From Eledone cirrhosa (Eukaryota): a stretch of DNA of 64,000 nt. Position 1 is the stretch's first letter; each line of letters opens with the position of its first letter. Below the pieces are notes generated by a model that worked only from the letters and a program-made list of their open reading frames with translations, was not told the DNA's origin and did not search any database. Location of the stretch: NCBI GenBank assembly GCA_964016885.1, contig CAXHJY010000645.1:62001-126000 (forward strand). The letters are read 5' to 3'. The translations under genes were made by a program, and so were the position numbers. Below, one piece after another: positions 57,801 to 60,316 of the stretch.

Positions 57801-57863
57801 TATTTTATCTGAGGAAAGCGTACCAAAGTGTTTTGGTACCCTTGAAATATATATAATAAAATA
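57801..57863 (+). ncRNA. Type I hammerhead ribozyme motif (long stem II, ATAT loop III)
   Basis: tattttat-CTGAGGA-[aagcgtaccaaa gtgt tttggtaccctt]-GAAA-tatata-TA-ataaaata; predicted cleavage after 57855. Confidence 0.85.
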
Positions 57864-58415
57864 AATATGGTTTTATAAATATAGTTTCCATTTATTTAAT
57901 GTCATTGAATATTATATTCCAGAAAACTTGTCGAGTGCTCTGAATCAGTTATAAACATTTATGTTTGTTGAATTACCAACAACTTAAATAACCCTTCTGC
58001 TTAAAAATTTCTTTAGTCAAAAATACGGTGGAAGCTTATATTTCTGCTATATATATATATATATATATATATATATATATATATATATATATATATATAT
58101 ATATATATATACACATATATATATATATATATATATATATATATACATATATATGTACATATACATACACACATACACACATATATATATATATATACAT
58201 ATATATGTATATATACACACACACACACACATATATATGCATATATATGTATATACACACACACACACACACACACATATATATATATATATATATATAT
58301 ATATATATATATATATATAGTAATAATGATAAATTTGAAGACTAAAATCCAAAGAGGGCTCGATAACGATAAATATATATCAAATATATAAGAACCGTAA
58401 AATATTTATATTTTT

Positions 58416-58466
58416 AGTTTCAGAAGATCCCGTTAAGGGTGAAAGCAGCGATTCTTTGCTTAAACT
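58416..58466 (+). ncRNA. Hammerhead-like motif with a U4A core change (family also at 62545-62725 and 37090-37130)
   Basis: agttt-CAGAAGA-t-ccc gttaa ggg-t-GAAA-gca gcgattctt tgc-TT-aaact. Confidence 0.5.
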
Positions 58467-59374
58467 TTAATCTGTTATTTTAATATATATATTATATATA
58501 TATACATACATATATATATATATATATATATATATATATATATATATATATATATATATACATATATATATATATACATATATATATATATACATATATA
58601 TATATACATATATATATATATATACATACATATATATATATACATATATATACATATATATATATATATATACATATATATATATATACATATATATATA
58701 TATACATATATACATATATACATATATATATATATACATACATATATATATATACATATATATACATATATATATATACATATATATATATATACATATA
58801 TATATATATACATACATACATATATATATATATACATATATATATATATATATATATATATATATATACATATATATATATATATATACATACATATATA
58901 CATACATATATATATATACATACATATATATATATATATATATATATATACATACATATATATATATATATATATATATATATGTATATACATACATATA
59001 TATATATATATATATATATACATACATATATATATATATATATATACATACATACATATATATATATATATATACATACATATATATATACATATATATA
59101 TATATACATACATATATATATACATATATATATATATACATACATATATATATACATATATATATATATACATACATATATATATATATATATATATATA
59201 TATATATACATACATATATATATATATATATATATATATATATATATATATATATATACATATATATATATATATATATATATATATATATATACATATA
59301 TATATATATACATATATATATATATAACTTTGAAATGTTTTGGCCAGTATTGGCCCAGGCCATGTCTAACTTAA

Positions 59375-59392
59375 TAGCACCACCTGGCGAAG
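59375..59392 (-). promoter_or_regulatory. CTCF-like motif in a 130-bp unique island between (TA)n fields
   Basis: tcgccaggtggtgcta on the minus strand resembles the CCASYAGRKGGCRS consensus; this is a motif match only. Confidence 0.3.
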
Positions 59393-60250
59393 TCTTTCAA
59401 TTCAGGATTTGGGCACCATGGCCCATTCGAGAAGAGAATTACTGTTTGCGGAGACATATATATATATATACATACATATATATATATATATATATACATA
59501 TATATATATATATATATATACATATATATATATATATATATATATATATATATATATATACATACATATATATATATATATATATATATACATACATATA
59601 TATATATATACATACATATATATATATATATATATACATACATATATATATATATATATATACATACATACATATATATATATATATATATACATACATA
59701 TATATATATATATATATACATACATATATATATATATATATATACATACATATATATATATATATATATATACATACATATATATATATATATATATATA
59801 TACATACATATATATATATATATACATATATATATATATATATATATACATATATATATATATATACATATATATATATATATATATATACATATATATA
59901 TATATATACATATATATATATATATATATATACATATATATATATATATACATATATATATACATATATATATATATATATATACATATATATATATATA
60001 TATATATATATATACATATATATACATATATATATATATATACATATATATATATATATACATATATATATATATATACATATATATATATATATACATA
60101 TATATATATATATATATATATATATATATACATATATATATATACATATATATATATATATATATATATATATATATATATATATATATATATATATATA
60201 TATATATATTATATATATATATATATATACACATAAAACTGTTTATATTG

Positions 60251-60316
60251 TATTTTGTCTGAGGAAGGCATAGCATATTGTTAATATGATATCCCCGAAA
60301 TATATATAATGAAATA
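60251..60316 (+). ncRNA. Type I hammerhead ribozyme motif (long stem II, ATAT loop III)
   Basis: tattttgt-CTGAGGA-[aggcatagcatatt gtt aatatgatatcccc]-GAAA-tatata-TA-atgaaata. Stem I is kept by G-U pairs, and stem II has a different sequence but is still a hairpin. Confidence 0.82.

Follow-up and report, generated by a model that had tools for sequence, protein, structure and literature searches.

Three dispersed hammerhead ribozyme motifs (copies A, B and C) in the window, i.e. the whole 64-kb stretch of DNA that was analysed, are very probably the hammerheads of pseudo-LTRs (pLTRs) of Hydra-clade Penelope-like elements (PLEs). This assignment follows from similarity to ORF-bearing elements elsewhere in the genome: copies A and C match the pLTR of element L040 (82% over 267 nt and 96% over 161 nt, respectively), and copy B matches that of L033 (91% over 232 nt). 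A link to Penelope-like elements had been suggested in an earlier note on this DNA, and it is borne out, as the matched elements carry an ORF of the Hydra type. Covariation between lineages supports structural selection on a family of type I hammerheads.

Hammerhead copies in the window

All three copies reported in the earlier note are present where it placed them and contain the core CUGANGA...GAAA...UA (Table 1). The order of the conserved blocks is that of type I (CUGANGA / GAAA / UH), and the cleavage triplet is AUA; positions are numbered according to the standard hammerhead scheme. Stem I has the 8 bp described before, all of them Watson-Crick in copies A and C, and stem III likewise consists of two pairs, A-U and U-A, closed by an AUAU loop. 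For stem II, an imperfect hairpin is found in each copy as claimed, but the reported length of 11–14 bp includes mismatched positions; folded alone, the stem has 11 pairs in 12 positions in copy A, 11 in 14 with three mismatches in copy B, and 10 plus a bulge in copy C. The earlier note mentions neither the mismatch that is fixed at stem II position 4 nor the two sister copies in which loop III is GCGC. The U that copy C has at position 4 is likely a C lost through CpG decay. The predicted 3' cleavage product of copy A begins at 57856.

Table 1. Hammerhead copies and pLTR fragments in the window.
Feature	Position	Strand	Details
Hammerhead copy A	57801-57863	+	stem I 57801-57808/57856-57863; core 57809-57815; stem II 57816-57843; GAAA 57844-57847; palindrome 57848-57853 (UAUAUA hexamer), then UA; predicted cut after 57855
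Stem II mismatch of copy A	C57819.C57840	+	
pLTR fragment with copy A, 5'-truncated	57729-58003	+	extends to the long 3' terminus (~145 nt beyond the predicted cut)
Inverted 22-nt stub like the 3' terminus of the family	57707-57728	-	adjoins (TA)n; termini compared by eye
Hammerhead copy B	60251-60316	+	C60269.C60293 mismatch; tandem G.U/U.G in stem I; A.C at base of stem II; predicted cut after 60308
pLTR fragment with copy B, 5'-truncated	60233-60450	+	flanked by (TA)n; terminus at +145
Hammerhead copy C	12069-12134	-	U.C at position 4 of stem II (12116/12092); predicted cut between 12077 and 12076
pLTR fragment with copy C, 5'-truncated	12021-12179	-	short (+56) terminus, then (TA)n
Sister-lineage hammerhead, GCGC loop III	9211-9281	+	15-pair stem II, C.U at position 4
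Sister-lineage hammerhead, GCGC loop III	36927-36997	-	

The stability of the whole-copy folds is modest (z = -1.97 for A, +0.89 for B and -1.44 for C; stem II of copy A alone reaches -4.09). Because single copies are not unusually stable, the case rests on copy numbers and covariation. The comparison with Rfam that the earlier note had recommended did not recognise the motif: no hammerhead family matches copy A or B at E-values up to 10. A scan of the whole window is swamped by microsatellite and miRNA matches, with no hammerhead among the best 150 of 669, and a genome search with RF00163 (Hammerhead_1; 74 candidates scored) listed 18 matches, none of which lies in the window.

The window contains further hammerhead-like cores and repeats. 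Cores of other families are located at 8819 (-), 26035 (-) and 14631 (+), the first of which matches a family at L037, L048 and L072. Several unrelated minimal hammerhead families with a palindromic stem III also occur in the genome (CTAG, CGCG, GTAC, CCGATCGG and CTAATTAG; L008, L035, L039, L045, L049, L119, L125, L160). A further repeat that is bounded by (TA)n and has inverted arms (56200-56590 and 11640-11900) includes a hammerhead-like core (56354 + and 11803 -) whose stems III and I look degenerate. The segment 56897-57484 (+) is one unit of a ~608-bp repeat, with (TA)n at its end, and is 95–98% identical to many dispersed copies and to arrays in which as many as ~6 units are arranged head to tail (8,059 candidates at first look); the ends of this repeat have GAGCACTC-like motifs that, by eye, are also found at the ends of published Hydra elements. 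As it represents a separate tandem repeat family, we rejected this segment as the 3' UTR belonging to copy A. At 55690-55722 (+), a GCTCT...AGAGCACTCT hairpin is similar by eye to the termini of published Hydra consensus sequences.

Covariation and the open position of stem II

In an alignment of 16 sequences, picked to span the lineages, the proposed structure pairs in 91% of the cells versus 69% after shuffling, with none of 500 shuffles reaching this value and 32–48% paired in slid-register controls; the structure tested here was derived from the same sequences. Changes on both sides are seen in 15 of the 17 pairs. RNAalifold, unaided, finds only stem II and leaves position 4 open. We further applied a strand-swap test, in which the 3' strands are reassigned among the medoids of 11 lineages (clusters of at least two members, covering 278 of 300 distinct copies). 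Stem I forms 47 of 55 pairs versus 37.2 when permuted (p = 0.0019), the two parts of stem II 29 of 33 versus 21.0 and 39 of 44 versus 27.1 (p = 0.0003 and 0.00005), and loop III 21 of 22 versus 14.8 (p = 0.0007). With nine coarser clusters every p-value is below 0.004, and a run with 15 clusters agreed. Since the lineages are related, these permutation p-values overstate independence; structural selection, as proposed in the earlier note, is nevertheless supported for stem I, stem II and loop III alike. The presence of a fixed mismatch within a helix that is otherwise rewritten argues against mere copying of inverted repeats at the DNA level. The catalytic core recurs, together with the pair A15.1-U16.1 and H17=A, in lineages with an ORF identity of only ~35–65%, these being letters that the search patterns required. 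The pair 10.1-11.1 is relaxed, with G-C in three of the 16 sequences and no pair in six.

In the 3.0-Gb genome, the motif is found far more often than by chance; the copies counted are not independent of each other. A generic core pattern with C.pyrimidine at position 4 of stem II yields 107,928 matches (control: 34). Among exact patterns, the one with the stem I of copies A–C and an AUAU loop finds 27,081 copies, that with a GCGC loop 22,325 and that with an AUGU loop 29,267, each against a control of 0. Patterns with C.purine at position 4 yield 4,220 matches (control: 86), and one C.A family dominates among the matches listed; those with a base other than C yield 5,546 (control: 285), and the ones listed mostly seem to be members of known families that carry a single mutation, in many cases at CpG. 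Over all 117,694 matches, position 4 has a C in 95% and C.Y in 92%. Counted once per lineage medoid (n = 11), it is C.C in eight, C.U in one, U.C in one and G.U in one, the last being derived from the non-C search. Among the first 100 generic matches listed, classified by hand, loop III is AUAU in 41, GCGC in 19, AUGU in 18, GAUC in 13 and another sequence in nine. The unpaired C is likely to be under selection in active lineages; it may make a tertiary contact, bind a protein or dampen cleavage of the monomer.

Template ends and probable cleavage by paired hammerheads

In the lineage of copies A, B and C, there are two classes of 3' ends, one ~56 nt and the other ~145 nt beyond the cut site, both at TA-like sites. 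Insertion into (TA)n, claimed before, is confirmed: (TA)3 occurs within 6 nt downstream in 84 of 103 copies, a set whose search pattern demanded some downstream sequence. Inverted pairs combine one short and one long arm in 23 of 25 cases. This one-sided extension resembles that of other PLEs, but measures ~90 nt here versus 30–40 nt in Hydra elements (PMC8557442). A small hairpin with UUGU...ACAA arms (57961-57980 + and 60412-60428 +) lies 105–120 nt past the cut site, within the 90-nt segment that separates the two termini.

No copy ends at the cleavage site itself (0 of 131, counted over loci from searches that fixed no downstream letters, a set enriched for GCGC). In the GCGC-loop lineage, two patterns detect 21 and 6 AT-preceded starts at the cut site versus 22,325 intact cores, and hence no pile-up of starts at A/T-rich upstream junctions, the only ones these patterns see. 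Of the 21 starts, five keep a core upstream and three (L261, L262, L271) consist of inverted pairs that fold back almost exactly at the cut site, only H17 separating the arms, possibly by microhomology; so small and equivocal a set carries no weight. The lack of ends and the scarcity of starts at the cut site indicate that the RNA which is reverse transcribed carries an intact hammerhead. Such a template fits a re-ligated circle and an uncut RNA equally well; a cleaved and re-ligated circular template has been proposed for PLEs (PMC4209133).

The palindrome of loop III differs by lineage (AUAU, AUGU, GCGC, GAUC, ACGU), and is self-complementary in 121 of the 131 distinct copies when G.U is allowed and in 93 under strict pairing. 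Its two inner pairs covary (UA, UG, CG, AU) though they are unable to close within one strand, so that pairing of loop III is possible only between two molecules. The suggestion that the loop is suited to dimers thus gains support. In monomers, closure of stem III is predicted to cost 2.1–3.5 kcal/mol. Cofolding of copy A has its minimum at the double hammerhead (-28.2); for copies B and C and the two GCGC copies, this form lies 1.7–9.9 kcal/mol above the minimum. Action as dimers is established for the hammerheads of PLEs and retrozymes (PMC4209133, PMC7229834, PMC6765202).

We hypothesize that the copies cut only as a double hammerhead formed through the loop-III palindrome and thereby feed a circular template, an account which, taken as a whole, we judge to be probable. 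In a read-through transcript, the two hammerheads would swap their stem I strands and form an intermolecular stem III of eight pairs, which would allow both AUA sites to be cut. A unit-length RNA would be released and ligated to a circle, in which the lone hammerhead would be unable to cut. Nicked (TA)n would then serve the reverse transcriptase (RT) for priming, at TA-like sites that lie 56 or 145 nt beyond the cut, and copying across the intact hammerhead would give rise to partial tandems, truncated ends and inverted arms. Catalysis itself should be weakened by the relaxed pair 10.1-11.1, by U15.2-A16.2 and by the A/U-rich stem I.

An alternative explanation for the intact template is that the fold acts mainly as a signal for RT binding or packaging, or as a dimerisation kiss, which seldom or never cuts, and that insertions derive from uncut read-through RNA. 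The hammerhead kept together with the sequence past the cut site, the scarce starts at that site and the relaxation of G10.1-C11.1 would all agree with this; so would the in vitro behaviour of minimal PLE hammerheads, whose cleavage is poor even in dimeric form (PMC4209133). We consider this explanation unlikely all the same. Without chemistry, it is difficult to see why the core, A15.1-U16.1 and H17=A should recur, even if the search patterns required those letters, and the review PMC6765202 states that related hammerheads of PLEs are cleaved in dimeric form.

It is quite improbable that the long stem II and a contact between the open C and stem I make the monomer an efficient cutter, with the palindrome being of secondary importance. 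The mismatch at position 4 sits where the contact between loops 1 and 2 of canonical hammerheads begins, which would favour such a role, as would the prevalence of C.Y (107,928 of 117,694 matches) and the ability of copies B and C to extend stem I past an internal loop. Against it stand a stem III of just two A-U pairs, which is unfavourable in monomers, the covariation of the inner palindrome pairs, and the open C itself, for which no covarying partner was identified. The motif has no canonical loop 2, while the open C is conserved.

The carrier element and its relation to known systems

Hammerheads often occur as divergent pairs in the genome. Regions with such pairs contain an RT/endonuclease ORF between or beside them, and units of the order hammerhead-ORF-hammerhead are found at L210, L040, L392, L398 and L403. 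In the full element, one hammerhead is located ~190 nt upstream of the start codon and the second 1.0–1.8 kb past the ORF, the two being 3.5–4.2 kb apart. At L210, for instance, a partial 3' UTR is followed by a hammerhead whose cut site lies 188 nt before the ATG, the ORF, a 3' UTR of ~1.8 kb and, 4,234 nt after the first, a second hammerhead, then ~56 nt and (TA)n. Since copies A, B and C match both pLTRs of such ORF-bearing elements, they represent truncated ends and not a separate short element. No PLE ORF was found by tblastn within the 64-kb window.

The ORF codes for ~740 amino acids, with an RT followed by a GIY-YIG endonuclease at the C terminus. In L094 (743 aa), the motifs RWR, DKT, GLYRDD, CNCRNKSNC (CxCX5C), VVY...YVG, CDLC (CxxC) and CRH (CxH) are recognisable, and CCHH is absent. 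Searches of Pfam and PDB with the ORF gave no match; therefore, the RT/endonuclease assignment rests on these motifs, read by eye against PMC8557442, whose printed Hydra proteins the N-terminal half resembles. Thirty homologues have 29–38% identity. Within the genome, ORFs of the GCGC-loop lineage (L392, L397, L400, L403) are 43–47% identical over most of their length, that of the GAAC variant (L398) 34–57% and that of the C.A family (L396) 51–64%; a family with a GC-rich stem I (L395) has an endonuclease fragment alongside, and for the GAUC-loop lineage no ORF was seen in the regions L394, L407 and L410.

We inferred an ORF tree from nine ORFs of the studied genome and 19 of 79 metagenomic relatives, using pieces extracted on the L094 query. 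In this tree, which has no outgroup and does not include the named Hydra families, a branch with 100/100 support separates the nine ORFs from the rest; L393 sits on a long branch, and the connection with its hammerhead is uncertain. Descent from CTATATAG-type relatives (L311, L313, L333, L359), which have stem I and palindrome in common with the studied lineage, was considered but is not supported, as they are not its sister in the ORF tree.

The notion that the copies form non-autonomous elements of their own, similar to retrozymes or SINEs and merely borrowing PLE enzymes, which corresponds to the reading of the earlier note, is the least probable of all and for copies A, B and C already largely refuted by their match to both pLTRs of ORF-bearing elements: the copies in the window are merely 160–275 nt long and non-coding, no ORF was found beside the GAUC-loop hammerheads in the three regions named, and retrozymes have been proposed to derive from pLTRs (bioRxiv 10.64898/2026.07.22.740005), but the upstream extents of the relatives of copy A, most of the top ones aligning at ~23-297 of the query with 89–93% identity, range between 22 and 781 nt in those that have a common upstream stretch (23 of 25), and no head-to-tail arrays of 170–400 nt were seen by eye among the matches listed.

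Many traits are shared with Hydra-clade PLEs as characterized in PMC8557442, namely the ORF with a C-terminal GIY-YIG, DKT, CxCX5C, CxxC and CxH and without CCHH, insertion into (TA)n, a type I hammerhead in sense orientation close to the 3' end, and the general PLE traits of partial pLTR tandems and inverted 5' copies, besides the extension at one end only. RWR in the L094 ORF corresponds to the RWK motif of the Hydra definition. The unit of 3.5–4.2 kb, by contrast, exceeds the <3 kb given there as a general description, because the 3' UTR is long, and a copy number above 100,000 likewise sets the studied genome apart from the elements of that source. In all 26 rows of its File S2, stem III begins with A-C (C15.2-G16.2) and comprises 3–4 bp, and stem II comprises 3–7 bp; unlike these, the studied lineage has U15.2-A16.2, a palindromic tetraloop, a stem II of ~7–16 pairs and the open C.

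A long stem II had been regarded as atypical of PLE hammerheads, a view we do not share: Schistosoma PLE motifs have 7–8 bp (Cervera and de la Pena 2014, PMC4209133), and among the metagenomic ORF relatives an unbroken stem II of at least 9 bp occurs in 12 of 39 motifs. These motifs, from metagenomic contigs whose hosts are not independent, are those with a canonical core among 42 found in 48 of 79 loci, the three others being dropped. C15.2 is kept in all 39, position 4 is paired in 35, and C.Y occurs in none. As a long stem II also occurs among the relatives, it is the open C, U15.2-A16.2 and the relaxed pair 10.1-11.1 that mark the studied lineage.

With the minimal PLE hammerheads as presented in PMC4209133, the family has in common the location in pLTRs, a mostly dispersed occurrence as truncated singles or inverted pairs, a short palindromic stem III and many covarying families per genome. 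A bulge in helix II is known from the PLE hammerhead of D. virilis. Minimal PLE hammerheads keep G10.1-C11.1, with an extra nucleotide 9.1 and a helix II of at most 7–8 bp, whereas the studied lineage has a variable pair 10.1-11.1 and a longer helix that is broken by a fixed 1x1 mismatch. Copy numbers of 4,000–9,000 were deemed remarkable in the same source. Non-LTR retrozymes are likewise of type I, with a weak helix III and a palindromic tetraloop that needs dimers; they are, however, non-coding tandem repeats of 170–400 nt with canonical loop-loop contacts, and the studied motif belongs to an ORF-bearing element (PMC7229834). For axolotl retrozymes, the same source gives 126,247 motifs and proposes a circular RNA intermediate.

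Hammerheads in the ends of Hydra PLEs and their action as dimers have already been published; the open-C variant appears to be new. We found no description of it in the literature compared here; Lunse et al. 2017 with its alignments and the supplements of PMC4209133 may already contain one. With this variant, an animal genome of 3 Gb harbours a hammerhead every 28 kb or so that is overlooked by Rfam.

A bolder reading, which we put forward tentatively and regard as doubtful, is that the largely orthogonal palindromes of the sub-lineages (AUAU, GCGC, GAUC, ACGU) together with their stem I sequences constitute an obligate, self-recognising dimer switch; C15.2-G16.2 may have been lost in its course, and position 4 may have been opened as a new contact or as a brake. 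If this were true, the 5' hammerhead of an element would find its partner in the 3' hammerhead of the same element, at a distance of ~4 kb, rather than among the ~100,000 competing copies from other lineages, and the family would represent a natural code for long-range self-recognition of ribozymes that yields circular templates. The role of PLE hammerheads is still open (PMC8557442). The family described here offers a natural series of covarying hammerheads, along with nearly intact ORF-bearing copies, for testing the model of dimer cleavage and circular templates, and provides precise predictions as to the cut site, the dependence on the palindrome and the circle junction.
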